Below the pieces are notes generated by a model that saw only the letters and a program-made list of their open reading frames with translations, was not told the DNA's origin and ran no database searches. DNA of 32,000 nt from Candidatus Brocadia sp. (lineage in GTDB: Bacteria; Planctomycetota; Brocadiia; Brocadiales; Brocadiaceae). Shown here piece by piece: positions 1 through 19,561 of this stretch. The translations under genes were made by a program, and so were the position numbers. How positions within the stretch are numbered: position 1 is the stretch's first letter; each line of letters begins with the position of its first letter. The stretch covers positions 1,500,001 through 1,532,000 of the forward strand of contig CP091279.1 of assembly GCA_021650915.1 (NCBI GenBank), given 5' to 3'.

Positions 1-2188
1 CAAAAATTTTGGGCATCATATCCTCAGCTATTCCCGTACCGGTGTCTTTGAAACTGATATGCACGGTACGCTTATCTTTTTGAGTTGTTGTTATTGCAAT
101 CGTATCCCCGTTAATGGTAGCATCATCCGCATTAATCAAGAGATTCATAAATACCTGCTGCAACTGCTCAGCAAAGCCATTGATTTTTGGCAGACGGGGA
201 GATAGTTTTACCCTGATATTTTTATTTTTTGCAGCAAATTGCTCCACAATGAGGGAAACCGTATCTTTGATCAGCTCGTTAATGTTCACTGGTTTTGGTT
301 GTTCATTTCCCTCAAAATGAGATAGTTCCAGCAAAGAATCAACGGTTTTTTCAATACGTTTTGTTACCTTTTGCATCGTCTTGAATTCTTTCAGCGTCTC
401 GCTGGCAAAGGAACCGTTCCGCTCCAGAAAGCCCTGTATCATGCCGGAAAGAATCGCCAGGGGGGTATTGATCTCATGAGCGACTCCGGCCGCAAGCCGC
501 CCAATTGAAATCAAGCGGTCGGAATGCACCAGTTGCTGCTGGAGTCGTTGCTGTTTTTCCTCCTCCTGCTTTCGCTCGGTAATATCCTGAATTAACTCCA
601 GCACCTGCACCACCTTGCCCTCCTTGTCGAAGATGGGAGAACTCATTACATTGCAGTATTTCTTTTTGTGGTTATGATAAATCACCCGTTCCGTCTGGCT
701 TATTCTTCCCGTCTCAAATACCCGGACAGACGGGCAATCCGCGGGAACCGACGGAAGGTAACAATACGTCTCAAAGCAGGTTTGGTTCAGAATCTGATTG
801 CCTGACGGATGATGCTCGATCAATCGCTTATTCGCCCAGCATATTTTATTATGTCGGTCGATAACCAGCAGGTCAGCGCCAATTTCTCTTACAATGTTAT
901 CCAGTTTTTTCTTTTCCTCAATGAGCTCCGATTCCAGGTTCTTTCTTCTCGTTATGTCCCGGAAATGTATCAGCAGGTATAAAATATTTCCTCCTTCTTT
1001 TACCACGGTAACATCCAGTTCCATAACCAGGACCTGTTGGTTCTTGCTGATAACCTCAATCTCCGTTGTTTGGACATTTTTCTGAACCGCCATGACAAGA
1101 AGCTCTGAAACAAATCGTTTTGATGATTCCGGTAAAAAATCATAAATATACCTGCCTAAAAGCTCCTCCATCGTGTAACCAATAATCTTTTCTTCCCGCT
1201 GATTTACCGTAAGAATCTTGCCGTTCAGGTCAATCATCATCATGGAATCCGCGGCGTGGTTAAACAGCATTTTATACCGTTCTTCCGACGCCTTGATGCG
1301 GTTGAACAGCTTGGTGTTTTCCATGGCAATGGCGAGTTGTGGCGCTATCTGCCAGAGGTAATAATAGCACTGCTCGTGAAAACTATTCGGTTTTTCGCTT
1401 CCAAAAGTAAAAGCGCCGAGCACCTTCCCTTTATACGTGAGGGGAAACCCAAGCCGTGAGTGTATCCGCTCTTTCAACAACACCCTGTCAGTCCAGAATC
1501 TGCCATTTTGGGTGTTGTTGACAATCACGGGCTCACCGGTTTTGATAATTTCCTCGAGGAGACTGCCGGCCAGGGGAAAAGATTCGCCTTCATTGATCTC
1601 GCTGAAAGTATACGTTTTTGCAAGCGCAAACACCTGAAACCATTGTCCCTGTTCATTCGAGGTAATGAGGCATGCGCGATCAAAGGGTATGACCTTCTTT
1701 AACTCACTGCATACCTGGGAAAAACCCTCCCGGATATCCAGACTGGCGGCAATGATTTTATTGGTGTTGCTGATGATTTCTTTTTCCGTGAGCGTCCTCT
1801 TCAGGCTGGCTTCGAGCTGTTGCTTGTAAAGGGCTTTTTCTATGGCCTTCTTTAAATAATCCGGATCGAATGGTTTCAGGACATAATCAACTGTGTCCAG
1901 ACACAGGGAGCTCATAGCGCTCTTTATTTTGTCCTGATCAACCATCACGAGAATGATTGTGTCCGGAGAAACCTCTTTGATTCTGTTCACGAGGGAAAGC
2001 TCAGCAATATCATGAAATCTCAGGTCGAGGAGGATTAAATCGACACCCTGTTTCATGAGCACCTGAACAGCTTCATCATGATGAGATGCGGCATAAACAT
2101 GATACCCGTTTTCCTCAAGCAGACCCTTGAGTGATACACACATCATGGTATCATCGTCGACGATAAGTATCTTGTGACTCGCTTGCAT
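1..2188 (-). CDS. Hybrid sensor histidine kinase (REC-GAF-PAS-PAS-HisKA-HATPase); C-terminal end runs off the window
   Basis: Absent from the ORF track because it has no stop inside the window. Hand translation of the minus strand from the ATG (complement of 2186-2188) gives MQASHKILIVDDDTMMCVSLKGLLEENGYHV...DLILLDL (receiver). Later it gives QQQLVHSDRLISIGRLAAGVAHEINTPL (H-box), QQVFMNLLINADDA (N-box) and FKDTGTGIAEDMMPKIF (G1 box). The frame stays open to position 2. There is an in-frame alternative ATG at 2215. Confidence 0.85.
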   Translation of the reverse strand, partial: MQASHKILIVDDDTMMCVSLKGLLEENGYHVYAASHHDEAVQVLMKQGVDLILLDLRFHDIAELSLVNRIKEVSPDTIILVMVDQDKIKSAMSSLCLDTVDYVLKPFDPDYLKKAIEKALYKQQLEASLKRTLTEKEIISNTNKIIAASLDIREGFSQVCSELKKVIPFDRACLITSNEQGQWFQVFALAKTYTFSEINEGESFPLAGSLLEEIIKTGEPVIVNNTQNGRFWTDRVLLKERIHSRLGFPLTYKGKVLGAFTFGSEKPNSFHEQCYYYLWQIAPQLAIAMENTKLFNRIKASEERYKMLFNHAADSMMMIDLNGKILTVNQREEKIIGYTMEELLGRYIYDFLPESSKRFVSELLVMAVQKNVQTTEIEVISKNQQVLVMELDVTVVKEGGNILYLLIHFRDITRRKNLESELIEEKKKLDNIVREIGADLLVIDRHNKICWANKRLIEHHPSGNQILNQTCFETYCYLPSVPADCPSVRVFETGRISQTERVIYHNHKKKYCNVMSSPIFDKEGKVVQVLELIQDITERKQEEEKQQRLQQQLVHSDRLISIGRLAAGVAHEINTPLAILSGMIQGFLERNGSFASETLKEFKTMQKVTKRIEKTVDSLLELSHFEGNEQPKPVNINELIKDTVSLIVEQFAAKNKNIRVKLSPRLPKINGFAEQLQQVFMNLLINADDATINGDTIAITTTQKDKRTVHISFKDTGTGIAEDMMPKIF

Positions 2189-2398
2189 GGACACGGTTCG
2201 TCCACTCTCTTTCATCGGAAATAGCGGATATCTCACATGGTATTCCTAGCCACAATATTAATATTATGAGAAATTTATGTCAAGTTTAAAGCTTGGTATT
2301 GACTGCGGAAGTAAAATCAAACGACTCTTTATCTCTCCGCAAAATTCCAGCGGACAAGATCTTCTCTTGACCAGGAAGAGAATTGTAAATAAGTTTGC

Positions 2399-2427
2399 TT
2401 GACTTCTTGAACCCTTATTGATATGTT
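2399..2427 (+). promoter_or_regulatory. Candidate sigma70-type promoter for the nqr/rnf-like operon
   Basis: TTGACT (2399-2404), 17-nt spacer, TATGTT (2422-2427), about 155 nt upstream of the 2582 start. Motif match only. Confidence 0.3.
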
Positions 2428-2474
2428 ATCGCAAATCTTCTTATTTTAATGTACAGGAACTTCAAAGTTGCGAT

Positions 2475-2503
2475 TGTAGAGCGACGAGGCTCGTCGCTCT
2501 ACA
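2475..2503. repeat. REP-like perfect palindrome, copy 1 (TGTAGAGCGACGAG-G-CTCGTCGCTCTACA)
   Basis: Two perfectly complementary 14-nt arms read directly. It sits in the 5' leader of the nqr/rnf-like operon. The core AGAGCGAC[G/C]AGGCT[C/G]GTCG[C/T]TCT recurs at 4733-4755 and 27850-27876. Confidence 0.8.
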
Positions 2504-2581
2504 GCGAGAAAGTCGCCGAAGGCCTAATTAACTCACAACGAATGTGCCTTGTAATTCTCTTACCAGGATTAAGACATACCA

Positions 2582-3616
2582 ATGAGGAAAGAAACCATAG
2601 GGTTTAAAGGCGGGTTTCATCTGCTGGATGCTTACCCCGTGTCATTTTGCAATATTATCGATGAGATCTCCTCTGACGGTGCCCTGGAAACGTTTCAATT
2701 ACCGGTCCCCGCCAAAAAGGTAGAACAGGTCATTGTGAACCTGTGCCCCACCGAACCCTGGGCATTGCCCAACTGGGTAATCCTGAAACACAAGACGGCT
2801 GCATTCCTTGCTATGGTAAAAGAGATGCAAACAAGGTATTTTCCCGATGCCCGGTTTTCTCTGGCGATCAACGAAAAAGAAGAGAGGGTTGTTGAAGATG
2901 CGAAGCTTTTTGCCGGCAGCGAAGACTGGATAAGGGCCGTCCCGCTTGCTGCAAAGTATCCTCAGGACGACCCCATCGTCCTGATAAAGGTACTTTTGGG
3001 CATGGATGTAACTTTTGGTCAGGATACGATGCCGCTGGGAATAGTGACCCTGGATGCCCAAACTGTTTCAGCCATCTATGAGCAGGGTATCAGGGGAAAG
3101 AACGTAAATTCACGCTACCTTGTCCTCTCGGGCACGGGTTTACGGGAGAACGAAATTATTCACGTTGAACTGGGGACGTCTGTGAAAAAGATTCTGAAAA
3201 ATAAGGTGCGAGACGCAGACGCGTTCCGTGTGTTTATAAACGGCCCCTTACGGGGCAAAGAAATAACCGATTTTTCATACACGATTGACTGGTCTGTCAA
3301 CAATATCGTGGTTTTAGAGGAAAAGAACCGGAAGGTACTGTTTCCCATGTTCAAGGCTGACGAACTGGCATTCACGACAAACATGCTCGGTGAATCGCGG
3401 CGGTGCGTCTATTGTAATTTCTGTGATGATATTTGCCCGGTTGGCTTAGAGCCTGCACTCTATTATCACCATTATGTGCGCGGGGAAAAGCACAAGGCAA
3501 GGTTGTATCATTTGGGAAAATGCATCGAATGCGGACTGTGCAGTTTCATCTGTCCATCAAAGTTAGAACTCCTGAAAATAATTCTGGAATGCAAAGCGCC
3601 GGGTAAAAACGAATGA
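2582..3616 (+). CDS. RnfC/NqrA-family subunit with two 4Fe-4S motifs and no recognisable flavin/NADH module
   Basis: 344-aa ORF. CVYCNFCDDICP and CIECGLCSFICP are two CxxCxxCxxxCP ferredoxin motifs at the C-terminus, as in RnfC. The central part (VIVNLCPTEPW..., YPQDDPIVL...) resembles the RnfC/NqrA core. I see no GxGGAGFP-like motif. ATGA overlap with the next gene. Confidence 0.75.
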   Translation: MRKETIGFKGGFHLLDAYPVSFCNIIDEISSDGALETFQLPVPAKKVEQVIVNLCPTEPWALPNWVILKHKTAAFLAMVKEMQTRYFPDARFSLAINEKEERVVEDAKLFAGSEDWIRAVPLAAKYPQDDPIVLIKVLLGMDVTFGQDTMPLGIVTLDAQTVSAIYEQGIRGKNVNSRYLVLSGTGLRENEIIHVELGTSVKKILKNKVRDADAFRVFINGPLRGKEITDFSYTIDWSVNNIVVLEEKNRKVLFPMFKADELAFTTNMLGESRRCVYCNFCDDICPVGLEPALYYHHYVRGEKHKARLYHLGKCIECGLCSFICPSKLELLKIILECKAPGKNE

Positions 3617-4716
3617 AAAAATTTCTGAAACCTCTGGAACCACTCCTGGATAAGGGCCTCAACACGACTGAGTCTTTTATTCATTCTCACCGGAACGTTC
3701 ATTTTCTCTTTGGATCCCTCTTTGGGGCAATTGACGGACTGCTCCGCAGCCCAAAGGAAACGGCACAGGCGCCTCCCTTTATCAGGAGCAATTATGACGT
3801 AAAACGGTTTATGGGCGCCATCCTGGTGGCATTGACAACCGGATGGGTATTGCCGGCGATGTACTTGTTTGGCTGGCAATGCGTCGTCTTCAAATTGCTC
3901 ATTTCTTTTGTTATAGGCGTTTTTATTGTCGATGTCCTATGGGCAATCCTTGCACGGGAGGAACATATCAACGAAGGTGGTTTTGTTACCTGCCTGTTTA
4001 TTCCGGCTATCCTGCCGCCTCAGGCGCCACTTTGGCTGGTTGGTTTGGGGGCAGCGTTAGCCATTATTTTTAGAAATATCCTGGGCGGGGTTGGGAATAA
4101 TCTCGTAAATCCAGCCCTCTTCAGCCGTTTGTTTTTGACGATCTGTTTCCCTGCATTTCTGGTGACCGGTTATCAAACGCCCCTTGTTGGCATCCAGGAT
4201 ATTCATGCTGTGCATCAGGGATTGGATGCTGTTACCCATGCCACCCCGTTTACGGCATTTAAGACGAGTGGAGAGGTTGCATCGTATCTTTCCCTGTTAT
4301 TAGGCACGGCGACTGGCTCTCTCGGTGAGACGTGCCGCGTGGCATTGATCGTATCCGGACTGTGGCTGATTAAGATAAAGGTTGCTAACTGGAGAATACC
4401 AGCGTCCTATCTGGGCAGCGTGTTTGTCTTTTCCGTCTTTTTTTCCCTGATTTTGGGCAAGGCTGTTGCGCCACCCTTCTTCCAACTCCTGAGCGGTGGG
4501 TTGATTTTAGGGGCATTTTTTATGGCTACTGACCCGATAACCACAACGTATAATCAAACTGCGAAATGGATCTTTGGGGCGGGATGTGGATTTATTACCG
4601 TGCTGATACGCGATTTTACCACCTTGCCTGAAGGGGTAATGTATTCCATTTTGCTTATGAACCTTCTGGCCATTCCGATTCAAGCGCTTATGGTAAAAAT
4701 ACGCTATCGTTTATAA
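3613..4716 (+). CDS. NqrB/RnfD-family polytopic membrane subunit
   Basis: 367 aa and very hydrophobic. Family landmarks: GNNLVNPALFSRLFL, GSLGETCRVALIVSGLWLI and GAFFMATDPITTTYN. The PPFIRSNYDVKRFMGAILVAL N-terminal segment resembles the NqrB-type extension. Confidence 0.9.
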   Translation: MKKFLKPLEPLLDKGLNTTESFIHSHRNVHFLFGSLFGAIDGLLRSPKETAQAPPFIRSNYDVKRFMGAILVALTTGWVLPAMYLFGWQCVVFKLLISFVIGVFIVDVLWAILAREEHINEGGFVTCLFIPAILPPQAPLWLVGLGAALAIIFRNILGGVGNNLVNPALFSRLFLTICFPAFLVTGYQTPLVGIQDIHAVHQGLDAVTHATPFTAFKTSGEVASYLSLLLGTATGSLGETCRVALIVSGLWLIKIKVANWRIPASYLGSVFVFSVFFSLILGKAVAPPFFQLLSGGLILGAFFMATDPITTTYNQTAKWIFGAGCGFITVLIRDFTTLPEGVMYSILLMNLLAIPIQALMVKIRYRL

Positions 4717-4732
4717 GAATAGAGTTCAATGA

Positions 4733-4755
4733 AGAGCGACGAGGCTCGTCGTTCT
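4733..4755. repeat. REP-like palindrome, copy 2 (AGAGCGACGAG-G-CTCGTCGTTCT)
   Basis: 11-nt arms with one G:T (wobble-compatible) mismatch, between nqrB-like and nqrC-like genes. It accounts for the first ~15 codons (MKSDEARRSANRIDK) of the track ORF that starts at 4729. Confidence 0.75.
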
Positions 4756-4773
4756 GCAAACCGCATAGATAAA

Positions 4774-5523
4774 ATGAAAATTCCTCTATCATCAAAATAC
4801 CTGACAGAGTTAAAACTAATTCTTTCACGAATTGCGGCAATCCTCTTCATCACTTTTTTGCCCTGCATTGGGCTGCTAATGGTATATGTTTTTACTGCCC
4901 CAAGAATTGCCGAATACTATGACATAAAGGAAAAAAGGGCCGTGTTGGATATCTTTCACATACCGTATCGTACCACGGAGCGCCATATCGCTGGTTTTGC
5001 CTTCACGAGTATTGATAAAAAAGACCTCAAGGACGTTTTTCGTAACAACATAACCGTTGAAGAGCCAAAGGTAGCATGGGAAATCCAGGCGACAGGAACA
5101 CAGACGGCTGGGGGAAAACCGAAAGGCGAGCAGAGAAAAAAACTCTACAAATATGTGAAAGACGGAAAACTTCAGGGTATTGGTTTTGTCGAATCCAGGA
5201 TGGGATATGGTTATAACAAGTCGAGCACCATGTCACTTTTCATCTGCGTTGAGCCTGATCTGGAAACGCTAAAAGGACTCGAAGTGCTGGATCACAGTGA
5301 AACTCCCGGTCTGGGCGGAAGGATCGTTGAGGAATCGTTTAAAAAACAATTCGTCGGCAAAAAGGTGCGTCCCAGGATATTCGTCGTAAAGGGAAAGAAG
5401 GCTGAAGGCGCCAATGAAGTGGATGCGATTACGGGCGCTACGAATACCAGCAAGGGGATAGAGCAATTTATTAATGACGCCATGAAAGAATTTTGGGAAG
5501 AGCAAGGGGACATCAAATGGTAG
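4774..5523 (+). CDS. NqrC/RnfG-family FMN-binding subunit
   Basis: SETPGLGGRI and VDAITGATNTSKG (S/TGAT flavinylation motif), with an N-terminal membrane anchor ILSRIAAILFITFLPCIGLLMVYVF. I moved the start to the ATG at 4774 (MKIPLSS...) because the upstream codons lie in the palindromic repeat. Confidence 0.85.
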   Translation: MKIPLSSKYLTELKLILSRIAAILFITFLPCIGLLMVYVFTAPRIAEYYDIKEKRAVLDIFHIPYRTTERHIAGFAFTSIDKKDLKDVFRNNITVEEPKVAWEIQATGTQTAGGKPKGEQRKKLYKYVKDGKLQGIGFVESRMGYGYNKSSTMSLFICVEPDLETLKGLEVLDHSETPGLGGRIVEESFKKQFVGKKVRPRIFVVKGKKAEGANEVDAITGATNTSKGIEQFINDAMKEFWEEQGDIKW

Positions 5524-6932
5524 GGTTGAGGAGAAGCGTACGAAAGGTTTCCAAATATTTTATGAGAGATAATCTCATCCTGACTGCCGGCGCCGGTCTC
5601 GGATTTTGTTCCTCCCTTGCGGTTACCAATAAACTGGAAAATTCCCTGACCATGGGAATCGGCGTAACCCTGGTAACGGCAGGCAGTTTTTGCGTGGTCT
5701 ATCCTTTCAAGCGGTTGATATCGACCGCCGGCACACATCATAAAATTTCCCTTTTAATGATTATTGTGTCCGTCTTTGTGGCGATCTTTGGATTTTTTGC
5801 GCAGGCCTTTGTCCCTGCAATTACGGCAAATATCAAGGCATATATCGATCTGATTACCACAAATTGCATTGTACTTGCGGTAATCTCCGAGGGACTGACC
5901 GTTGGCTTTTGGGATGCCCAAAAAAAGATCTTAAAGGCATGTTTCGGTTATTCGGCCGCCCTGATCTTGCTTGCATTTCTCCGTGAGCCTTTGGGTTTTG
6001 GAACGGTTATGGGCTTTTCCGTGCTGCCGGATACCTTCCCAAAGGTGGTTCTTATGGTTACCCCGGTGGGTGGCTTCTTTGCCCTTGCCGCATTCAGGCT
6101 CTTATTGCGCCCTTTTCTCCTTAAGACGGGGATCGTATGCCAGGAATCGTCCGCCTGCGGGTGCGCATCCGCTGCCCATGGTGGAGTTCCGCTTGTCGTT
6201 TCCCACCCAAAACGGGGAATTTCCAGAACAACATTGATCGCGATAGGATTGGGTGCTGCTCTGTTTGTCAGTCTCATCGTCCATATACAGACAATACCCA
6301 CCTTGCATCAGCATTTTCTCATTCTTTTCCCGGTACTGCTCAATGCCCTCTTCTTTGACGGGATTGTGCTAAGCAAGCTTTTGGGGTTATGCCCCCTGAT
6401 CAATAAATCGCGCCAAATAGATGCGGCGTGGAAGATGGGGGTTGCGGTAATTATTGTAACGACGTTATCCACCGCATTAAATTGGGTCGTATATCAGCAT
6501 ATCCTGGTACGGTGCAGCGACTTTTTGTCACAGTACTCACCTATCCCCCTCCGGTTGGAAAATATCTTCTATTTAACCGTTTTTATTGTTACCATTGCCG
6601 TGTTTGTGCAAATCCTGAGTGTCCTCCTAAGAAAATTTGCAAAAGCTGTATATGAACAGATGGGGCAGTTCCTGGAACTTATCACGGTCAATTGCATTGT
6701 CCTGGCCAGTGCCACGTTTACGATACCCACAGGGGCGAAATTCCTGGTTACAACCGTTACAGCGTTTGGATACGGACTTCATTGGATGATGGTTGTCGTG
6801 TGGCTTGCTATACTCAGACGTCAGCGGCTCTTTGTCCCCACGACTGCATGGGATGAAGATACCATCGCCATCCTGCTCCTCGGTATCATGGCGGCCATCT
6901 TTACGGGGATCGGGATGATTCAGCTTTTTTAA
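5517..6932 (+). CDS. Fused NqrD-NqrE (RnfE-RnfA) membrane subunit
   Basis: The first half has GLGFCSSLAVT and DLITTNCIVLAV. The second half has LLGLCPLINKS and ELITVNCIVLAS, so the paired conserved Cys motifs of both paralogs are on one polypeptide. Start chosen at ATG 5517 (AAGGGGA 7 nt upstream, 7-nt overlap with the previous gene); the track ORF starts at 5493. Confidence 0.85.
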   Translation: MVGLRRSVRKVSKYFMRDNLILTAGAGLGFCSSLAVTNKLENSLTMGIGVTLVTAGSFCVVYPFKRLISTAGTHHKISLLMIIVSVFVAIFGFFAQAFVPAITANIKAYIDLITTNCIVLAVISEGLTVGFWDAQKKILKACFGYSAALILLAFLREPLGFGTVMGFSVLPDTFPKVVLMVTPVGGFFALAAFRLLLRPFLLKTGIVCQESSACGCASAAHGGVPLVVSHPKRGISRTTLIAIGLGAALFVSLIVHIQTIPTLHQHFLILFPVLLNALFFDGIVLSKLLGLCPLINKSRQIDAAWKMGVAVIIVTTLSTALNWVVYQHILVRCSDFLSQYSPIPLRLENIFYLTVFIVTIAVFVQILSVLLRKFAKAVYEQMGQFLELITVNCIVLASATFTIPTGAKFLVTTVTAFGYGLHWMMVVVWLAILRRQRLFVPTTAWDEDTIAILLLGIMAAIFTGIGMIQLF

Positions 6933-6946
6933 AATGGATTACAGAA

Positions 6947-7225
6947 ATGAAGACCGTCGGCATAGATAAAAGTGAAATTATTAATTTCCTGAGGTTAGAC
7001 CTGATATCTGAAATTCAGGCCACAAAAAAATCCTTAGAACTTTTTGAGAAAAAATATAACAAGTCATTTAAAGAGTTTGAAAAGGAAGTATTAGAAGGGG
7101 AGGAGGAATTTGTAAAATGGGATGATTATCTGGAGTGGAGGGCATACCGTGATACCTATAAAGATCGAATGAAGGATCTGAAAAACTTAAAAGATGAGAA
7201 AAACATTAAGGTTATTATAAGGTAG
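6947..7225 (+). CDS. Small charged coiled-coil protein, possible partner of the downstream DUF6516-like gene
   Basis: 92 aa. LELFEKKYNKSFKEFEKEVLEGEEEFVKWDDYLEWRAY resembles small helical antitoxin-like proteins I recall (pattern FE.KYG.S.EEF....E..F..W). The region is AT-rich compared with its flanks. Confidence 0.55.
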   Translation: MKTVGIDKSEIINFLRLDLISEIQATKKSLELFEKKYNKSFKEFEKEVLEGEEEFVKWDDYLEWRAYRDTYKDRMKDLKNLKDEKNIKVIIR

Positions 7226-7283
7226 CGCTATAATCAAGAAGTACGAGACGCTGGATGTTAAATTAGGAAAAGATTTTTATTAT

Positions 7284-7544
7284 TTGAAAATAAGGGCTGA
7301 TATTAAAAATAACACAGAGCTATATTTAAGAGAGTATATGCGTATTGGAGATGAAAAATATTCCTATCACTGGCAGGAAAAGGAAGGAAAATTAATTACC
7401 AGATGGGATAACGCGCCACACCAAAAGGTAAAAACGTTTCCCCATCATAAGCATCTTTCAGATGGAACCGTGGTTGAATCATACGAGATTACGCTGGAAA
7501 AAGTATTAAAAAGCATTGAAACGAAGCTCGGAGTAAAACAATGA
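7284..7544 (+). CDS. DUF6516 / TumE-family toxin-like protein; N-terminus uncertain
   Basis: YSYHWQEKEGKLITRWDNAPHQKVKTFPHHKHL matches the remembered family signature Y.YHWQ...G.L..RWDNAPHH....FPHH.H. The frame is open back to 7221 (..IIKKYETLDVKLGKDFYYLKIRADI) with no ATG or GTG, so the TTG at 7284 is the only conventional start. ATGA overlap with the nqrF-like start. Confidence 0.7.
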   Translation: MKIRADIKNNTELYLREYMRIGDEKYSYHWQEKEGKLITRWDNAPHQKVKTFPHHKHLSDGTVVESYEITLEKVLKSIETKLGVKQ

Positions 7545-9169
7545 CCATATCCCTCTTCCTTGGTGCGGGCATTCTGGCCTTATTGGTATTGCTGCTGAGC
7601 ATCTTCAGCGAGGTTATTTATCAATTTTTCGGACGCGGTGAAAAACGTAAGCTCACCATCGTAAGCGATGATGAATACAAAAAGGAACTCGATATCGAAG
7701 GCGGTGAAAAACTGCTTTCACTCCTTCAGAACCGGGGCTTTAACATTCCTGCCGCCTGCGGCGGTATGGCGACCTGCGGCCAATGCAAGGTAAAACTCCG
7801 CACCGATGTCGGTACGTATAACGCGGTAGAAATCCCGCATTTTGACCTGCGTACAAGAGAGGCATCGAGAAAATTCTTAGAGGAGGGGGCGGGCGATGGA
7901 TATATACGGCTGGCATGCCAGGTCCGGGTTGACAAGGATGTAAGCCTGTATCTGCCAAAGGACACATTACACGTCAGAAAATACACCGCCCGGGTAATTA
8001 AGAAACGGGCGATTACCAGCGATAAAATGGAGATGTGGCTACAGCCATCAAGGCCGATTCAGTACAAACCAGGCCAATACATCCAGCTGGCAATCCCGGA
8101 AGATTTTGTGGAAGAGCATTATAAAAAATACGGGAATTTCATTAAAGAGGCATGTAAGACTCTGGGAAAAGAATTTATTCCCTATGTGCCCGGGACAACG
8201 TTGTACCGGGGCTACTCACTTGCATCCACGGAACCAGACATCCTGAAGCTCATCGTTCGCATGGCCCCTGCTCATCCGAGCATGTCAATAGAAAAAGGTG
8301 GACCTCCCTGCATAGGGCCTGCTTGTGTGCATACCTACCTTTTAGAAAGGAGTCTGTGGAATTTTTTCCGCGGTGAAAAGATACGTTTTACGGGACCGTA
8401 TGGCCATTTTACGCTGAAAGAAGAACCGCATACCGCGGTCTTTGTTGCCGGTGGCGCAGGCTTAGCGCCTATTTTAGCCCTTCTGGAACAATGGTTCCAG
8501 GAAGGCCGGCAGGATACAGCCATCTTTTTCCTGGGGGAAAGGCGATTCCAGGATATTCCCATGGTCTATTTGCCCAAGTGGCTGACCTGGCAGCAAAAAA
8601 ATCCTCAGTTTAAACTTGTGCCGGTACTTTCCGGCGCATTTCGCGGCGACAACCCCGCTGAATTGAATGATCTTGACAAGAACTGTCTTTCTTCGCTTTC
8701 CGTGGAGGCCAAACGCCTCGTGAAAGAACAGGGGTTTGTGGATGAGCAGGAAAATCATTGGAAGGGCGAAGTCGGTTTTATTGGACCCCTCCTGAGAAAG
8801 TATCTCTCGGCGGATCAGAATATTGTATTTTACCTCTGCGGGCCGTCACCCATGACCGTCACCGTCATCGATTCAGCAGCGAACCAGTTGAATCTGAAAA
8901 AAGAAGATGCCCTCTTTGACGATTTTACCGGCACGCTCACCCCTTCAGTCGATCTGATCTATCAAAAGCTTGAAATTAAAGAACTGCTGTATCGTGCATC
9001 TCTACCCAACGCCGATAAGCTCATTGAAAAGATTGGCCAAATCCTCATTATTCAACTGATACTCAAAGACAAGATCGAAGAAGGCTACCGCTTCCTTGAC
9101 CAGGTAAGGGAATCCCTGGGAAAGTCTGCACAGGAACTTGAATTGATGCTCTCCGCCTATAAGAGTTGA
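7541..9169 (+). CDS. nqrF: NqrF-like subunit (TM anchor, 2Fe-2S ferredoxin, FAD/NAD(P)H reductase) with a C-terminal extension
   Basis: N-terminal TM ISLFLGAGILALLVLLLSIF. CGGMATCGQCKV...LACQV (plant-type 2Fe-2S), YRGYSLAS (RxYS FAD motif), VFVAGGAGLAPILALL and YLCGPSPM (NAD-binding). 542 aa against roughly 400 aa that I recall for typical NqrF. Confidence 0.9.
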   Translation: MTISLFLGAGILALLVLLLSIFSEVIYQFFGRGEKRKLTIVSDDEYKKELDIEGGEKLLSLLQNRGFNIPAACGGMATCGQCKVKLRTDVGTYNAVEIPHFDLRTREASRKFLEEGAGDGYIRLACQVRVDKDVSLYLPKDTLHVRKYTARVIKKRAITSDKMEMWLQPSRPIQYKPGQYIQLAIPEDFVEEHYKKYGNFIKEACKTLGKEFIPYVPGTTLYRGYSLASTEPDILKLIVRMAPAHPSMSIEKGGPPCIGPACVHTYLLERSLWNFFRGEKIRFTGPYGHFTLKEEPHTAVFVAGGAGLAPILALLEQWFQEGRQDTAIFFLGERRFQDIPMVYLPKWLTWQQKNPQFKLVPVLSGAFRGDNPAELNDLDKNCLSSLSVEAKRLVKEQGFVDEQENHWKGEVGFIGPLLRKYLSADQNIVFYLCGPSPMTVTVIDSAANQLNLKKEDALFDDFTGTLTPSVDLIYQKLEIKELLYRASLPNADKLIEKIGQILIIQLILKDKIEEGYRFLDQVRESLGKSAQELELMLSAYKS

Positions 9170-9257
9170 TGTTAGGAGCAAACAGTTCCGATCATGCCCA
9201 ACCAGGAGCATCTTGCCTTGCTCATGCAAGGCAAGGGATACATGGAATGCCTGGTGA

Positions 9258-9440
9258 AAAGCGAATCCAGACACTGTTTCCATCCTCCGTAGTGTCCGAT
9301 TGGAAGGCCGCGATCTCTGCGGCTACGGCCTGCATGACGCCTACCTGCAATGCGCCCATCTTAGGAATGCAATCCTTGTTAATACCGACCTTCAAAACGC
9401 AACGCCCAATGGTGCTCAGGTCTTTGAGATTTCTGCCTGA
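9258..9440 (+). pseudogene. Pentapeptide-repeat protein remnant
   Basis: Hand translation of the frame from 9294 gives VRLEG RDLCG YGLHD AYLQC AHLRN AILVN TDLQN ATPNG AQVFE ISA*. That is 7-8 consecutive A(D/N)LXX-type pentads with the central Leu in register. An in-frame TGA at 9255-9257 lies upstream. There is no ATG or GTG and no SD; the only start is TTG at 9300. Confidence 0.5.
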
Positions 9441-9498
9441 GAAGTGAGGTTTCGAACCAACGGATGCTGTTTCGCTGGTCAGCCGCTGGTATATCACT

Positions 9499-12400
9499 AT
9501 GATAAAACCTATTGATAATGAATCGAGAGAAATTGCAGTATCCGAACGGGAGAGAAATATCGTTGTTATTGCCGGGGCCGGAACGGGGAAGACGACCCTC
9601 CTGGTAAATCGGGTGCTGCATGTGCTTCTGGGTCACAAACGGCTGCAGAAAGAAGAAAGCCCCATCCTCAGAATCGTAGCCATGACCTTTACGGAAAAAG
9701 CCGCCAGTGATATGAAGGTAAGGCTGATGGGCGAGTTGGAAAAGATTGTTGCCGTTATCAAGGGAAATGCCTCGCCAGAAGAACAGATAAAGAGAGAGAA
9801 ATTTCTCGCGCATATCCGCGATACATACCATACGACCCTTGCAGAGATTGAACGCCGCGCAAAAAAGTCTCTGGAGGATATGGACAAGGCACTGATCGGG
9901 ACGATTCACAGTTTTGCCGCCCATCTGTTGCGTCTCTATCCCCTCGAATCGGGCGTAGTGCCAGGATTTATCGTGGATGAAGGCGATGTATTTGAGGAAA
10001 TGTTTGACAAAGAATGGAGCAGATGGATTGCAGGCGAACTTACGCTGGATTCTTCCCGCGCGCACCTCTGGAAGGACGTATTGCGGCGATTAGACCTTGA
10101 ATGCATGAAGGAACTGGCAAAGAAGCTGTCTGCGTTTACCATTCCCCCGGATTCCCTTACGTCACCGGCAAACGATGCATCCATCGTCCAACCCCTGATC
10201 GATTTTCTTGCCCATAGAATTACGAAGATCGTGGCTTCCTGCGGGAAGCAGAAAAACAATCTTGTCCTGCAATTGAATGAGTTATCAAACATTTTCGATG
10301 GTATCAGGAAGCACGGTATTGACTACGTGAATACCCTGACATACGACCTTGACAAAGACCCCTCTAAGGCAAAAAAAGATTGGACGGAGGAAGGGTTTGC
10401 GGCAGCACAAAGACTCGTAAAGGAAAGTCATGGGATGTTAAAGAAACTCAGGGCCGTTGATCATGCCTTTCTTACCGCAGCGACAGACCTCATCCTGCCG
10501 TTTGCGAAGACCTTTCGGCAAACGTATCTGTCGCAGGGCTATGTCTCGTTTGACGGGCTTCTTACCCTTACCAGGGATTTATTGCAAAAGAAAGAGTGTC
10601 GCCACGTTCGTGAAAAGCTAAAGGACGATTTTCGGGTAATCCTTGTCGATGAGTTCCAGGATACCGACCCCGTCCAGTATGAAATCGTCCTCTTTCTTTC
10701 TGAGTCGCTGGAATACTACAGCACGGATGCACGGAAGGTTATCCTTGAGGAAGGCAAACTTTTCATCGTGGGCGATCCCAAGCAGTCTATTTATGCCTTT
10801 CGCAGGGCGGATATTGAGGCGTATGAATATGTGGTGAAGCAGGTGTGCGGACAGGATGAGCCATTGAAATTGCAGGAAAATTTCAGAAGTCATTCCGGTA
10901 TCATCGAGGTGGTAAATCAGCTCTTTGACGGAAGAATCATGGTGGAGCAGCCGGGCTTACAACCACGCTATATCCCGATCCATGCACAGAGACAAAAGAG
11001 ACACTCCTCTCAGAAAGTTGAGCTTGTGCTGGTTTCTGATATAGAAGGAAACGAACTGAGTGCAAATGAGGCCAGAGAGGCAGAGGCAGAGTGGATTGCA
11101 CGCTGGATTGCAAACCACGTGAACCGGGAAACCATGGAAGATCCCCTGGCTGCAAACGGGGTTCGTACGCTTGTTTTCCGGGACGTTGCCCTGCTGTTGC
11201 GCGCATTTACTCAGGTGAGGCCGTATGTTGAGGCGTTCAAACGATACGGCATCCCGTACATCGTGGAAGGGGAAAAATACTTCTATACCACCCAGGAAAT
11301 CCTCGATTTTATCAATCTTCTGCGCGTCATCGGAAATCCTCACGATCTGGTTGCGCTGGTGGGCGTACTACGCTCACCTCTCGCAGGCTTAACCGATCGT
11401 GAAATCTATGAACTTCGGGTACATCATTCACTGGATTACCGCAAAGGCGTCTTGGAAAAAATCCCTGAAGATTACGGAATAAAAGATACGGATTGTCATC
11501 CTCTTCAAACTCACAAGCAAGAAAAGGAAAAGCCAAATCTATCTGCTGAAGCAAAGGAAATCGCAGAATCTTTCTATGCTTTTTTACGAGAAATCCATGC
11601 CCGTGCCGGCATCATTCCCGTCTCTCAGCTAATCGCAGAGATCCTGGACAGCGCCCATATTGCCGAGATTACCGCAAGCGCCTGGCATGGCGAACAGAAG
11701 CTGGCCAACCTCTGGAAGCTCCATCGGATGGCTTGCGATATGGAAGAGTCGGCAGGTATTTCACTGCAAACCTTCGTTGGCCGTATCAAGACGCACATCA
11801 GGGAGGGGCGGGAAGAAGGTGAGAGCCCGCTTTCGGATGAGACGCTGGATGTCGTGAAAATCCTTACCATCCATAAGTCGAAGGGGCTGGAATTTCCCGT
11901 TATTATCCTCGGCAATCTGCACGGTGAAGTACGAAATGACCACGAGGTTTTGGACGGAGCGGTATTTGATTGGTCTACGTCTACAACCGGCATTGTGGTT
12001 GGACGGGGGAATCAACAGGTAAGGAATCTGCAAAGCATGGTGATCGAAAAGAAACTGAATGACCGGTCGTGGGAAGAAGAGAAACGCGTCCTGTATGTGG
12101 CCATGACCAGGGCCAGGGAACGGTTGATCCTTACGGGATCAGAAAAGGGAGATGATAAATCGTATATGGGAATGATCACCCAATCGGTGAAGGATGCCAC
12201 AGGCATGGAGCCTGGCAATGAAGATAAAACAGCAGATAAGGAAAAATCCCCCCTCCCCTTGCAGGAAAAGGCTGGGGTAATGGGCGTTTCTCAAGGAAAA
12301 TTCCCTTTAGGAAACGCAGAGATCTTTGTTGAGCATTTCAGATTTGATGGAATACGTCATCCACAAAAGGCAGTTAAGGAAAAGTTTTTGAATGCCGACT

Positions 12401-13299
12401 GGACGGCCTTTGTTGAAACATGGAAGAAGAGAGAAGCAGAAATGGCTGAGGCGCTGAAGAGGCCGCTCTTTGTCTCTCCAACGACAATAGCTGACGAAGA
12501 AGCAATGGAAAAAGACGGACCCATAGCACAGAGGAGCACCAGGAAAATTTCTCATTTTCAGCCTGGTACGTCCGAACAACCTCGACCGGAAAATTATCCG
12601 CTATCTCCTCCCAACGGCGGAGGGGATAGCGGAACGGTTATGGCAAAGAAAATTCAACCTGATACTGGGCAACCGTATCCAGGGCAATCAGCGGTAATCG
12701 GTTCCCTTTGCCACCGGGTACTGGAGGGATGGGATTTTCGCGGAGATTCCCAGAAACTGCAAAGCTCCGTCGAATCAGCCGTAGCATGGGCCATTGCCGT
12801 TCAGAAAAATGAGCTAAGGTCGCCTGATCAACCTTTCGGGCAAGACCTTCACTATCAAAAGGAAGGGGCTATGTCTTCTGAAGGCGAGGAAAGAGGGAAG
12901 ATTCCAGGGTTTCATAAAACGTCCTCTGGAGCGACGGTATTTCAGGATGCGGAATTGATAAAAGCAGAGGTAATAAAAATCTTGTCAGCCTTTCTTGCCT
13001 CAGAGACATACCGGGAGTTGCAGGCCGCACAAATCCTTGGACGTGAGATACCCATCCTGCTTCATTGGGATGGGCAGGTTATGAGGGGTACTATTGATAT
13101 CCTTTACAAGATGGGCGACCGTGTCATCATTGCTGATTATAAGACAGATCGCGTCACCATGACTGATCTGACTGCAAGGGCAGAAAAATACCGCTATCAG
13201 AAAGAAGTCTACGCGGAAGCCGTCAAACGCTGTCTAAAAGTAGACAATCCTGAGTTTAAAGTTATCTTCCTGAGAATTGGCATGGCGGTGTCGGTTTGA
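9499..13299 (+). CDS. UvrD/AddA-type superfamily-1 helicase fused to a PD-(D/E)XK (RecB-type) nuclease
   Basis: AGAGTGKTT (Walker A), VDEFQDTDPVQ (motif II), VGDPKQSIYAFRRAD (III), ENFRSHSGI (IV), IHKSKGLEFPVIIL (V), LYVAMTRARERLILTG (VI). C-terminal nuclease motif GTIDILYKMGDRVIIADYKTD plus YRYQKEVYAEAV. Confidence 0.9.
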   Translation: MIKPIDNESREIAVSERERNIVVIAGAGTGKTTLLVNRVLHVLLGHKRLQKEESPILRIVAMTFTEKAASDMKVRLMGELEKIVAVIKGNASPEEQIKREKFLAHIRDTYHTTLAEIERRAKKSLEDMDKALIGTIHSFAAHLLRLYPLESGVVPGFIVDEGDVFEEMFDKEWSRWIAGELTLDSSRAHLWKDVLRRLDLECMKELAKKLSAFTIPPDSLTSPANDASIVQPLIDFLAHRITKIVASCGKQKNNLVLQLNELSNIFDGIRKHGIDYVNTLTYDLDKDPSKAKKDWTEEGFAAAQRLVKESHGMLKKLRAVDHAFLTAATDLILPFAKTFRQTYLSQGYVSFDGLLTLTRDLLQKKECRHVREKLKDDFRVILVDEFQDTDPVQYEIVLFLSESLEYYSTDARKVILEEGKLFIVGDPKQSIYAFRRADIEAYEYVVKQVCGQDEPLKLQENFRSHSGIIEVVNQLFDGRIMVEQPGLQPRYIPIHAQRQKRHSSQKVELVLVSDIEGNELSANEAREAEAEWIARWIANHVNRETMEDPLAANGVRTLVFRDVALLLRAFTQVRPYVEAFKRYGIPYIVEGEKYFYTTQEILDFINLLRVIGNPHDLVALVGVLRSPLAGLTDREIYELRVHHSLDYRKGVLEKIPEDYGIKDTDCHPLQTHKQEKEKPNLSAEAKEIAESFYAFLREIHARAGIIPVSQLIAEILDSAHIAEITASAWHGEQKLANLWKLHRMACDMEESAGISLQTFVGRIKTHIREGREEGESPLSDETLDVVKILTIHKSKGLEFPVIILGNLHGEVRNDHEVLDGAVFDWSTSTTGIVVGRGNQQVRNLQSMVIEKKLNDRSWEEEKRVLYVAMTRARERLILTGSEKGDDKSYMGMITQSVKDATGMEPGNEDKTADKEKSPLPLQEKAGVMGVSQGKFPLGNAEIFVEHFRFDGIRHPQKAVKEKFLNADWTAFVETWKKREAEMAEALKRPLFVSPTTIADEEAMEKDGPIAQRSTRKISHFQPGTSEQPRPENYPLSPPNGGGDSGTVMAKKIQPDTGQPYPGQSAVIGSLCHRVLEGWDFRGDSQKLQSSVESAVAWAIAVQKNELRSPDQPFGQDLHYQKEGAMSSEGEERGKIPGFHKTSSGATVFQDAELIKAEVIKILSAFLASETYRELQAAQILGREIPILLHWDGQVMRGTIDILYKMGDRVIIADYKTDRVTMTDLTARAEKYRYQKEVYAEAVKRCLKVDNPEFKVIFLRIGMAVSV

Positions 13300-13388: not shown

Positions 13389-15905
13389 TCATTTTGTTGC
13401 GGTCTCTTCCAGTTTCTTTAAGCGCCGCAATTTCACCGCCTCGTCCTGGATACGGGTCAGGTTCCCCATCGTTTTGGCGGTGCCCCACCACCAGCTGATG
13501 TCCTGCTGGGCATGGGCGGTGCCTTTGTACCCCTGCAAATGGTTCCAGAACCACATCTCGACATACTCCTGTTCTACGCCGCTGGGATTCCCATCGTTTT
13601 GGCCAAATATGGCGTAGGCGCCCAGTACCGGCCCGATAACCGGGAGGTGGCCACTGGTCTTTTTGAAAAGGCTATACACTTCAGGACCCAATTCCTTCGG
13701 GCTCAACAGTTGAACAATTAAATCGCTTAAGGGAAACGGCGACCTTTGTTCCGGAGAGGGTGTAATCATATCTTTTGCAAAGAGCTCTTCTACCATGAGC
13801 TGCGCGTCATCGATGCGCCTCCATGATTCAAACATGTACTGATCCAGGGAATCAAGCCACATGCTGGCAAACCGGTTGCTATGGCATTTGGTGCACATTT
13901 CCACCCAAGAGCGGCGTTTTGCCTTGCTTTCCGGGGAATAGATTTCCAGTTTCTTGTCCATGGGCGGTATCGTTATTCCGTAGGGGAAATCTTTGATTCC
14001 CGATTTGAATTCAACTTCCTTCGGCGGAATAACGCCCATCCGCCATATCCCTTTCGTCTCGACATTCATCTCCCAGCGGCCATCCCCAACATACATGTGG
14101 CAGTACTGGCATGTTGGAGCAGGATAATCAACCCCGGGAATGACCTCAGAGAGTTTCTTGTCCCAATTCCATTTCTCCCCGGAGATTTGATAAATAATCC
14201 CCCACCGGGAATGTTGATAGCTTTCCCAATCCGGGTGGTCTGGTCCCATATGGCATCCGGAACACACCTCCGGGCGGCGGGCTTCGGCCACGGAAAAGAG
14301 ATGTTTGCCGTGACAGTCGTCACACGATGACATATTCTGGTGGCATTGGTCGCATCCGATCATCGAATACCGTTCACCGCGCCGGTAGTTTTCCACATAC
14401 CAGGGAACGGATACCGTAGCCTCCCAATTCTGGGGATGACTGGGTCTGCCATGATCTCTCCCCTTTGCGAATTCTTTCGCCTGCTGAGGATGGCACACTC
14501 CACAGGCATTATCAACGGTAGGCATGAATAATTTTTCATGATTATCCCCATGACAGTAGGAACAGTATACCCCATTCATTGTCCCCGGCTCCCAGTTGTT
14601 GAGCTCTTTGCCAATTAATTCCTCAATCTCCTGGGTCTCTGCTGATACTTCCCGGTTTTTTTTCGGATTGGCATGATTTGAGATCTTCCACTGAGCCACA
14701 ATTCCCGGCGTGGACTCTTCGTGACATTCGACACACTGCTCTGGCCGATATTTGCTCAGGAGTTCTTTATAAGTCACACTATCAGGCGGGATATAATGTC
14801 TCGCTGGATTAAAGTACATATAAAACGGTATCGGTTTATAAAATTCTCCCCACGGACCATCACCTTGCGCCAGACCAACAAAATCCTCATACATTTTCTT
14901 GAGGGATGCATCGGGGTATTCATATGAGCCTGGGGGTGCATTAAGGGTTGGAGCGCTCTTTACGTCAGAAGACATCCTGGGGTTCTCTTCTTTTTTTTCC
15001 ACAACAAAAATGCCAAACATACCATTCACCATGTGGTCATGAAAGTGGCAGTGGAACGCCCAATTTCCCGGCCCAACCCCTTCCCCTGCGGTAAAGTCAG
15101 CAATATGCGACGTAAACGGAGCCAATGAAACGTTGTCAATCAACGCTCCGCTTGCCTTGTCGACCCACCGGTGTCCGTGCGTATGAAAGGTATGCATCTC
15201 CTCAGAGGTATTAACCACATGAAACCGCACCTTTTCCCCTGCGGTTACCCTCCATACCAATCCGGGGAATGCGGAACGGTCACCGTTCATAAACTCAATA
15301 TCACCGGATTTATCATTAAACGCTTCATACTCAACGCCATTCACCCTGTATGAGTGCATGAAGACAACAAATTCCTTATCAGGAGGGCTTGGGTCGCCTT
15401 CTTTTGGCTCAATAATCAATGCGCCCCAGAGTCCGCGGGAAAGACCTTCATCTCCGCCCATCTCCAGGGCATGGGTGTGATAAAACCATGTGCCAGGCGT
15501 GCCGATGGTATCCCATACATACGTCATCGATTGTCCGGGTTCAACCGTGCTGGTAGGATTGCCTGCTATATGAGCGCCATCATTCGCAGCGGTATATTTC
15601 ACTCCATGAGGATGAAGCGAGGCGGGAACGGACAGCTTATTGGTAAAGTATACCCGTACCTTTGTCCCTTCCCGTACTTTTATGGTAGGCCCAGGCACCG
15701 TGGGATTTTCGCCTTTTCTGCAATACCCCCAGGCATCAAAAAATACGCCTGGTCTCAGCTCCAGCGCAACCGGACGCGCTTCCATTTCCAGGTGAACAAC
15801 GCCATCTCTTTCTGACAAACAGGGGATTTCGGCATCCACCCTGCATACCTGTAAGAAAAAGCTTGCCATGATTACCATGCCAAATGCTACCCGCTTGGCA
15901 ACCAT
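13389..15905 (-). CDS. Exported fusion: two-domain multicopper oxidase (NirK-related cupredoxin pair) plus octaheme hydroxylamine-oxidoreductase-like cytochrome c; putative encapsulin cargo
   Basis: Signal peptide MVAKRVAFGMVIMASFFLQVCRVDA. Cu motifs HPHG, YHTH, HTFHTHGH and HCHFHDHMVNGM. Eight CxxCH motifs follow: CVECH, CSYCH, CGVCH, CDQCH, CDDCH, CSGCH, CQYCH, CTKCH. The start lies 3 nt after the encapsulin stop, with GGAG 7 nt upstream. Confidence 0.95.
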   Translation of the reverse strand: MVAKRVAFGMVIMASFFLQVCRVDAEIPCLSERDGVVHLEMEARPVALELRPGVFFDAWGYCRKGENPTVPGPTIKVREGTKVRVYFTNKLSVPASLHPHGVKYTAANDGAHIAGNPTSTVEPGQSMTYVWDTIGTPGTWFYHTHALEMGGDEGLSRGLWGALIIEPKEGDPSPPDKEFVVFMHSYRVNGVEYEAFNDKSGDIEFMNGDRSAFPGLVWRVTAGEKVRFHVVNTSEEMHTFHTHGHRWVDKASGALIDNVSLAPFTSHIADFTAGEGVGPGNWAFHCHFHDHMVNGMFGIFVVEKKEENPRMSSDVKSAPTLNAPPGSYEYPDASLKKMYEDFVGLAQGDGPWGEFYKPIPFYMYFNPARHYIPPDSVTYKELLSKYRPEQCVECHEESTPGIVAQWKISNHANPKKNREVSAETQEIEELIGKELNNWEPGTMNGVYCSYCHGDNHEKLFMPTVDNACGVCHPQQAKEFAKGRDHGRPSHPQNWEATVSVPWYVENYRRGERYSMIGCDQCHQNMSSCDDCHGKHLFSVAEARRPEVCSGCHMGPDHPDWESYQHSRWGIIYQISGEKWNWDKKLSEVIPGVDYPAPTCQYCHMYVGDGRWEMNVETKGIWRMGVIPPKEVEFKSGIKDFPYGITIPPMDKKLEIYSPESKAKRRSWVEMCTKCHSNRFASMWLDSLDQYMFESWRRIDDAQLMVEELFAKDMITPSPEQRSPFPLSDLIVQLLSPKELGPEVYSLFKKTSGHLPVIGPVLGAYAIFGQNDGNPSGVEQEYVEMWFWNHLQGYKGTAHAQQDISWWWGTAKTMGNLTRIQDEAVKLRRLKKLEETATK

Positions 15906-15908
15906 GTC

Positions 15909-17027: not shown

Positions 17028-17181
17028 AAATATTGCCTCCTCATGGTTCAAATAATGTCTCAGAAATCGAATACCACTCCCCTTGTATTCTGCACTTCAC
17101 CTCGCTTTCTCCTCATCAGGCAGCAATAATTCTTAGATCTTTATGTTCATCAGATAACATCTTTTTTTTCATTATTCCAGC

Positions 17182-19470: not shown

Positions 19471-19486
19471 AGTCACAGCTTTTAAA

Positions 19487-19540
19487 AACTCCTCAGATTT
19501 TATAAGAGATAGAATGTCGTTAAGCCAGGAGATGCCTCTT
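19487..19540 (-). repeat. Promoter-like repeat, copy A (upstream of apbE fusion)
   Basis: 33 of 39 core positions are identical to 23494-23549 by hand alignment. The minus strand reads CTGGCT, 17 nt, TTATAA, then GAGGAG. Confidence 0.5.
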
Positions 19541-19561
19541 GTACAGAATCTGCGATGCTCT

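Follow-up and report, generated by a model that had tools for sequence, protein, structure and literature searches.

The closest described systems to the locus reported here are the Na+-translocating NADH:quinone oxidoreductases (NQR, encoded by NqrABCDEF; Vibrio cholerae structures 7XK3/8A1U and the menaquinone-using enzyme of Prevotella/Segatella bryantii) and the RNF complexes (RnfCDGEAB; Clostridium tetanomorphum 7ZC6, Acetobacterium woodii 9ERI, Azotobacter vinelandii 8AHX). In RNF, electrons pass from RnfB through the cluster of RnfA/RnfE to RnfG, then to RnfD and the clusters of RnfC, with export of Na+ (PMC9588780, PMC11889175), and the distance from riboflavin to cluster is 11.7 A (PMC9588780). 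In NqrB, two amphipathic helices at the N-terminus, which RnfD does not have, make up the quinone site (PMC12174285, PMC10643135). The locus itself is an operon at positions 2582-9169 of a 32,000-nucleotide stretch (the window) of the anammox bacterium Candidatus Brocadia sp., contig CP091279.1. It is already known as the anammox 'Na-NQR' (PMC6828613), and the accessible text of that paper treats it as an ordinary Na-NQR, with no mention of iron-sulfur (Fe-S) sites in subunit A, of the deletion of a barrel domain or of an altered ion path. The literature that we searched, which did not cover two key anammox papers, yielded no published description of an Fe-S-bearing NqrA or of these features. 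We propose that the operon probably encodes an NQR-type, ion-coupled NADH:menaquinone oxidoreductase.

Set beside NQR, the operon has the same gene order, an NqrF entry subunit, the quinone helices, E157 and G140 of NqrB, the covalent-FMN (flavin mononucleotide) threonines, the riboflavin ligands, the four D/E cysteines, an NqrA-type insertion before the ferredoxin domain and a dead FMN site in A. Unlike in NQR, anammox A keeps eight cysteines for two [4Fe-4S] clusters and has no barrel domain, and an additional helix joins D to E in a single protein. Also unlike NQR, E95, E119 and D397 are missing, R71 is Lys, two new carboxylates stand in transmembrane helix 4, F carries insertions and an 80-residue extension, and identity is only 25-31%. 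With RNF it shares the membrane core, the Nuo51-type fold of the first subunit and the 2x[4Fe-4S] domain at the C-terminus of that subunit; in contrast to RNF, there is no RnfB in the operon, the FMN/NAD residues of RnfC are gone, B is of NqrB type, the lineages split at 100/100, and the genome's own RNF lies elsewhere. Judged by these features, the complex appears to work like an NQR, although it lacks two NQR features (a cofactor-free A and the canonical Na+ residues) and most RNF features.

Gene content of the operon

Seven open reading frames (ORFs) on the same strand fill 2582-9169: A (344 aa), B (367 aa), C (264 aa), D-E (471 aa), a 92-aa ORF, a TumE toxin (86 aa) and F (542 aa). The order is A, B, C, fused D-E, toxin-antitoxin pair, F, i.e., A-B-C-D-E-F without rnfB as in NQR, here with D and E fused and the toxin-antitoxin pair inserted before F. 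Every anammox locus that spans enough sequence has the same gene order, so the arrangement is conserved across anammox loci and not due to chance. The enzyme subunits and their parts are as follows.

2582-3616, forward strand: subunit A, a shortened Fe-S-bearing NqrA of 344 aa, with the RnfC barrel domain and glycine-rich loop deleted
2708-3082, forward strand: FMN domain of A, of Nuo51 type but degenerate (residues 43-167; PF01512 match at E=4.6e-5, under the cut-off)
3404-3553, forward strand: 2x[4Fe-4S] ferredoxin domain of A, C275-C324, its eight Cys invariant in alignment A1
3613-4716, forward strand: subunit B, NqrB-type, 367 aa, with the N-terminal amphipathic quinone-pocket extension, xEG motif, FMN-Thr211 and riboflavin ligands N166 and D307; the D397 equivalent is Q357
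4729-5523, forward strand: subunit C, NqrC/RnfG-type FMN shuttle, 264 aa (PF04205, E=3e-15), with TGAT flavinylation motif at T238
5517-6932, forward strand: NqrD and NqrE as one fused protein, 471 aa when started at the ATG at 5517, with two PF02508 stretches, [2Fe-2S] Cys 31, 117, 292 and 393, and a remodelled ion path at K76, D111, VISE 122-125, S368 and E387
6228-6287, forward strand: additional hydrophobic helix between the D and E halves, with hydropathy peaking at 2.33 (residue 239)
7541-9169, forward strand: subunit F, NqrF-type, 542 aa, with a transmembrane helix, [2Fe-2S] C73/79/82/126 and a flavin adenine dinucleotide (FAD)/NAD(P)H domain (RxYS 223-226, GGxG 304-307, CGP 433, F462)
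8927-9166, forward strand: anammox-specific C-terminal four-helix extension of F, residues 463-542, helical in the model

No RnfB or polyferredoxin gene was found in 2582-9169. The genome has a separate canonical RNF, with rnfCDG at C1:1.896-1.899 Mb, rnfEA at 3.531 Mb and rnfB at C1:2.124 Mb, 0.6 Mb from the NQR operon. The original prediction for this stretch, made from its letters, had described a 344-aa first subunit with two RnfC-type 4Fe-4S motifs, an NqrF in last place and no RnfB in the operon; both motifs were indeed found in ORF 2582-3616, and the other two points held as well. It left unmentioned the D-E fusion (5517-6932), the TumE pair (6947-7544) and the 542-aa F with its 80-residue extension.

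Subunit A has two iron-sulfur motifs and a dead flavin site

Subunit A ends in two CxxCxxCxxxC motifs (C275/278/281/285 and C314/317/320/324), and all eight cysteines are present in 118/120 short homologs and in 118/118 long homologs. Classical NqrA is cofactor-free (PMC12174285), and A departs from that with two complete 4Fe-4S motifs; none of 13 classical NqrA sequences contains one. The motifs suggest that A would be occupied by two [4Fe-4S] clusters. The best NCBIfam match of A is the rnfC model (127 bits), and its predicted structure superposes on both RnfC (template modeling score 0.56-0.59) and NqrA (0.55). The confidence score (pLDDT) of this AlphaFold model is <50 over residues 249-333, the ferredoxin domain, and no cluster distances were taken from it. 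A shortened NqrA-type insertion ending in TTxxxGExR, common to NqrA and absent from RnfC, precedes the ferredoxin domain.

The flavin site of RnfC has decayed in A. The N-terminal KGG motif of RnfC is kept, while the roughly 100-residue barrel domain that follows it and the glycine-rich loop are deleted; because KGG is retained, the loss of the barrel is an internal deletion. The GxGGxxFP loop occurs in 0/120 homologs, and the other features of an intact RnfC site (NxxExEPY, YPxG, the N of the VxN motif) are likewise not present in A, with YPQG of RnfC reading YPxD in anammox. Nine positions show no variation in 22/22 RnfC, and 0/15 anammox A retain them; in the numbering of the genome's own RnfC they are G144, G146, G147, F150, E173, D181, G245, E247 and N274. 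We take these nine to be the FMN/NAD site of RnfC from homology to NuoF of complex I together with their invariance in RnfC, not from coordinates. Read this way, A has kept the FMN-domain fold and lost both the binding residues and the barrel domain. The earlier claim that the first subunit is without a flavin module is correct for the binding residues and mistaken about the fold, which is still recognizable at residues 43-167. What it took to be the unusual combination, an NqrF entry module together with a first subunit that has two 4Fe-4S sites and no working FMN/NADH site, is borne out.

Subunits B, C and F and the cofactor ligands

No cofactor ligand of the NQR chain is missing; the set includes the covalent-FMN threonines in B and C, the riboflavin ligands and the four D/E cysteines. 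The N156-E157-G158 motif and the N-terminal amphipathic helices of the NqrB quinone pocket are both found in B. All 15 anammox, all 35 other Fe-S-clade and all 14 NQR sequences have an N-terminal amphipathic segment of this kind, which 17/21 RnfD lack, the other RnfD being long-start ORFs. Residues E157 and G140 of B also follow NqrB rather than RnfD and are the same in all Fe-S-clade and NQR sequences. The genome has two menaquinone genes of the MqnA/D family and two ApbE domains, and menaquinone would be the likeliest acceptor of the complex. A 602-aa fusion of an FMN-binding domain and an ApbE flavin transferase is encoded at 17830-19638 on the reverse strand, 9 kb from the operon, and is a candidate flavinylating enzyme for subunits B and C.

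Subunit F has its best NCBIfam match in TIGR01941 (E=8e-45, 153 bits against a 295-bit cut-off), and V. cholerae NqrF is its best match both in a sequence search of the PDB and in Foldseek. The 80-residue C-terminal extension, present in 19/19 anammox F and 0/10 non-anammox Fe-S-clade F, begins directly after the FAD-stacking Phe and matches no family; an ESM Atlas search with residues 462-542 gave no usable match. A complex of A with F residues 143-542, predicted to see whether the extension replaces the lost barrel of A, scored 0.00, which is not evidence either way. The tree of F had no outgroup, and the origin of F is therefore not rooted.

Phylogeny of the operon

A tree of B, D and E was built from 42 rows and 740 columns, with 8 RNF as the root, and in it RNF stands apart from all other sequences at 100/100. 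Locus L185, which is an RNF, stands outside this tree, and L191, with fused genes, was left out; the sampling lacks Chlorobi and Chlamydiae, and the single-gene tree of B comes from quick mode only. Classical NQR (planctomycete, proteobacterial and Bacteroidota) forms one clade nested among the operons with an Fe-S-bearing A (100/100 and 98/94). The approximately unbiased (AU) test rejects monophyly of the Fe-S-A operons at p=0.025, an optimistic value given that the hypothesis was named after the first tree had been seen, and a grouping of anammox with planctomycete-type RNF at p=4e-11. The tree of A alone agrees, with RNF apart at 100/100 and NQR nested at 99/98.

On these trees, A, B, D and E are all of NQR lineage, within a widespread grade of NQR operons with an Fe-S-bearing A. 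Given the RNF root, the Fe-S sites of A are a retained ancestral trait that was lost on the branch to classical NQR. The operon is therefore not a recent chimera, and the original description of it as 'chimeric' is not supported, all four subunits being of NQR lineage.

The phylogeny also bears on a reading in which A is an ordinary RnfC, truncated or mis-called, and the operon a degraded RNF next to an unrelated reductase. The match of A to the rnfC model and that of B, which just passes the rnfD cut-off, speak for such a reading, which we nevertheless consider almost certainly wrong. The short A is a complete, conserved protein (316-384 aa across 120 clusters), its retained KGG marks an internal deletion, and the trees exclude RNF. 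A pseudogene or a mis-called start was rejected for A, and conservation and phylogeny together refute the degraded-RNF reading as a whole.

Distribution and full-length relatives

Orthologs of A with 46-80% identity were found in records of Brocadia, Kuenenia, Jettenia and Scalindua. By family within the order, matches were found in 43/46 and 27/28 genomes of two large families and in 0/14 of one family. In published work, nqrA was missing from the metagenome-assembled genomes of one anammox family (PMC9325076), possibly the family with 0/14.

The nearest non-anammox relatives of A are 450-520 aa long and have the barrel domain, a full NqrA-type insertion, the eight Cys and a degenerate FMN loop. 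Among the best 118 matches of the long-form profile, both motifs are present in all and the GxGGxxFP loop in none; their source names include Omnitrophota, Phycisphaerales, Poribacteria, Spirochaetes and Endomicrobiia. We examined 35 non-anammox loci in which A has the ferredoxin motifs without the loop and the sixth gene is visible. The sixth gene encodes NqrF in 28, a transmembrane-[2Fe-2S] protein with NuoE/NuoF-like genes in 7, and RnfB in 0, whereas loci with an intact loop in the first gene have an RnfB-type polyferredoxin instead; kin loci are not independent, so these counts give a pattern rather than a statistic. The anammox operon is like the full-length Fe-S-NqrA operons of these uncultured anaerobes in its eight-Cys A, NqrA-type insertion, degenerate FMN loop, NqrB-type B and NADH-entry module in sixth place. 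It is unlike them in that they have a 450-520-aa A with barrel, separate D and E, an F of about 360 aa, and E95, R71, E119 and D397 intact.

A second architecture was seen in L034 (8609-13116), L039, L056, L058, L071, L078 and L081, where the sixth gene encodes only a transmembrane helix and a [2Fe-2S] domain, and NuoE-like and NuoF/HydB-like genes come after it. The arrangement resembles an NADH module of HydABC type, perhaps bifurcating, on an NQR core, and in the B+D+E tree its rows fall in two places among NqrF-bearing operons. In other families of the same order, loci L152, L153 and L154 (genomes G001, G002 and G091) encode a barrel-bearing A of 490-545 aa, D and E as separate proteins and a 360-aa NqrF, and keep the canonical Na+ residues. 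This long form is a candidate for the ancestral state of the anammox operon.

Proposed electron path

In the mechanism that we propose, NADH would reduce the FAD and [2Fe-2S] of F, from which electrons would pass to the membrane [2Fe-2S] of the fused D-E, to the FMN on C and to the FMN and riboflavin of B. From riboflavin they would reach menaquinone in the pocket formed by the N-terminal helices of B, while alternating access of D-E would carry a cation outwards. Driven by the ion gradient, the chain could also run backwards in the cell, from menaquinol to NAD+. The two [4Fe-4S] clusters of A, inherited from RnfC, would adjoin the riboflavin at the acceptor end and relay or buffer electrons there, with no reaction with NAD. 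In the anammox D-E, the cytoplasmic Na+ entry network would have been exchanged for two new carboxylates, one beside each gate leucine. The linker helix would be needed to join the two oppositely oriented halves, as suggested by the NqrD/E structure.

Because NqrF replaces RnfB, NADH is the donor and the clusters of A lie at the acceptor end. NADH has a potential of -320 mV and ferredoxin one of -420 to -500 mV. With the clusters at the acceptor end, direct reduction of ferredoxin is thus unlikely, being uphill and having in addition to pay for ion export, and a soluble partner of A, if there is one, would be expected to have a potential above that of NADH. Low-potential reductant would come from this complex only indirectly, by energising the separate RNF, and anammox models do have the Na+ gradient from 'Na-NQR' drive RNF to reduce ferredoxin.

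Evidence against the proposed mechanism and alternative readings

Several observations weigh against an ion-coupled NADH:menaquinone oxidoreductase of NQR type, among them changes in the ion path. In Vibrio, NqrE-E95 and NqrD-R71 form a salt bridge, and mutation of E95 abolishes Na+ pumping (PMC10643135); the entry network of the A. woodii RNF consists of RnfE-R67, RnfE-E115 and RnfA-E88, with changes at R67 and E115 impairing the enzyme (PMC11889175); and NqrB-D397 has been named critical (PMC12901251). By alignment column counts, the E95 position is E in 63/63 non-anammox sequences and S or G in 15/15 anammox, that of R71 is R in 58/58 non-anammox and K in 15 anammox, and that of D397 is D in 67/70 non-anammox and Q in 15 anammox. 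The RxE of GRAE, which contains NqrD-E119, is kept in 58/58 non-anammox sequences and reads VISE or AISE in anammox, where the Glu of VISE, read without gaps, stands one residue off the E119 position and may partly replace it. The quinone-tail positions of B are also changed: G140 is kept, 141 is V, and 159 is G instead of F159, with a one-residue insertion, so the pocket appears reshaped. In favor of the proposed acceptor, the menaquinone-using Prevotella NQR has Leu, likewise bulky, at 141 (PMC10739449). Apart from B, which passes the NCBIfam rnfD cut-off by little, no subunit passes any NCBIfam Nqr/Rnf cut-off, and the anammox sequences stand on a very long branch, of 1.98 changes per column, in an unresolved basal fork, with its exact sister not placed. 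Lastly, the eight Cys of A are under stronger conservation than a vestige needs, which suggests a real electron-transfer role that perhaps does not end at quinone.

This last point leads to the alternative in which the [4Fe-4S] arm of A is a genuine electron exit (or entry) at which a soluble partner with a potential above that of NADH docks, for instance a high-potential Fe-S protein, a flavoprotein or a rubrerythrin-type protein, with loss of the barrel opening the old FMN cleft as the dock. It would account for the near-universal eight Cys in short and long homologs alike, for the absence from anammox A of a domain that its relatives keep and for the changes at G141 and F159, and it fits both the riboflavin-to-cluster distance in RNF and the rubrerythrin gene within the operon of one related locus. 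We hold it to be possible but unlikely: no conserved partner gene lies beside the anammox operon, and B keeps the quinone-pocket helices and E157 across the clade. An extended form of the idea is somewhat more doubtful still, in which the anammox complex would be a third type of RNF/NQR pump that takes in NADH at NqrF and passes electrons out through the [4Fe-4S] arm, the acceptor being a dedicated soluble partner either in place of quinone or alongside it, and whose D-E channel, rebuilt with a carboxylate at each gate, is coupled to protons. The original prediction had instead suggested that the arm perhaps serves a ferredoxin-type partner, which we take to mean delivery of electrons from NADH at F to a low-potential ferredoxin. 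In favor of this are the ferredoxin-type domain of A, its lack of an NAD site, the altered ion path and the need of anammox bacteria for reduced ferredoxin in the Wood-Ljungdahl pathway (bioRxiv 10.1101/855817). We regard it as very unlikely, as flow from F/RnfB to A/RnfC is the direction of ion export (PMC11889175), which makes NADH to ferredoxin uphill twice over, and the canonical RNF of the genome, with R67, E115 and E88 intact, is available for the job.

The changes in D-E and B could also mean that the ion path has decayed and that an intact redox chain, uncoupled or weakly coupled, only balances NADH and menaquinone. The loss of E95, E119, D397 and the R71-E95 salt bridge and the impairment of the A. 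woodii RNF by changes at R67 and E115 would agree with this, and yet we judge it improbable. The replacements are invariant over Brocadia, Kuenenia and Scalindua, which looks like a new function rather than decay: the new acids D111 and E387 are in 21/21 anammox copies and in no other sequence. Each directly precedes the leucine that matches a proposed gate (NqrD-L107, NqrE-L115), which would place one carboxylate on each side of the [2Fe-2S] cluster. The four Cys, the gate leucines, T110 and D133 are kept, the equivalents of D133 and E144 are still acidic, and the cell's own RnfE/RnfA keep the canonical R67/E115/E88. We infer a D-E channel that is altered yet working, in which the coupling ion may be H+ rather than Na+, the two being about evenly balanced; in P. 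aeruginosa, NQR pumps H+. Our preferred account of the operon stays that of an NQR-type, ion-coupled NADH:menaquinone oxidoreductase.

Inserted and neighboring elements

Three further features lie within or just upstream of the operon.

2475-2503, no strand assigned: GTAG-type palindrome resembling repetitive extragenic palindromic (REP) elements, upstream of the operon, with dozens of genomic copies (blastn) and a 10-mer core found 74 times
6947-7225, forward strand: 92-aa ORF, probable antitoxin partner of TumE; no Pfam match, adjoins TumE and co-occurs with it in 5 related loci
7284-7544, forward strand: TumE-family toxin, 86 aa, overlapping the nqrF start codon (PF20126, E=2.4e-24)

The toxin is absent in Kuenenia, where the gap between D-E and F is 12 bp. 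In Brocadiaceae loci this gap ranges over 12-745 bp and is an insertion hotspot, and because of this variation the toxin-antitoxin pair at 6947-7544 is a passenger insertion between nqrDE and nqrF. The palindrome is a dispersed repeat outside the enzyme and sits in a longer dispersed repeat; a related hairpin at 4737-4751 overlaps the start of subunit C, whose true start may be further downstream. An Rfam scan of 2150-9600 gave nothing credible, a terminator scan found no clear terminator inside the operon, and 13 promoter-like sites were found by scan against 9.9 expected. RNA runs from six studies contain the stretch as assembled contigs that also span its flanks, hence they do not demonstrate transcription or co-transcription across the toxin-antitoxin insert.

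Directly 3' of nqrF, 9499-13299 on the forward strand encodes a 1266-aa AddA/UvrD-like helicase-nuclease that is not beside the operon in related loci. On the reverse strand, 13389-17051 holds an encapsulin gene (Linocin_M18) and then an 838-aa fusion of multicopper-oxidase domains with an HAO-type multiheme domain, presumably the known anammox encapsulin with its NirK-HAO cargo. Also on the reverse strand, 19813-27805 holds a gene cluster that probably serves copper handling, with a P-type ATPase, an HMA_2 protein and two proteins of multicopper-oxidase or cupredoxin type.

Implications

In the accepted model, NQR arose from RNF through loss of RnfB, decay of RnfC to a cofactor-free NqrA and recruitment of NqrF, the decay falling after the loss of RnfB and before NqrF (PMC4014512). 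The operon is a surviving RNF-to-NQR intermediate, and the Fe-S-NqrA lineage orders these steps, with NqrF, the quinone pocket and the dead FMN site first and the clusters lost last, once, toward classical NQR. In the anammox enzyme, residues that Na+ pumping requires according to mutagenesis are gone, and this makes the Na+ gradient assumed for the anammox cell both testable and doubtful; judging from these residues the pump is possibly not the Na+ pump of its annotation. If the complex were a pump of the third type, it would link the NAD pool directly to the proton gradient of the anammoxosome, e.g., for reverse electron transport. For the RNF/NQR family, the anammox D-E offers a natural variant with which to work out the residues that determine ion selectivity, a matter currently under debate (PMC11889175, PMC12901251, PMC10643135).

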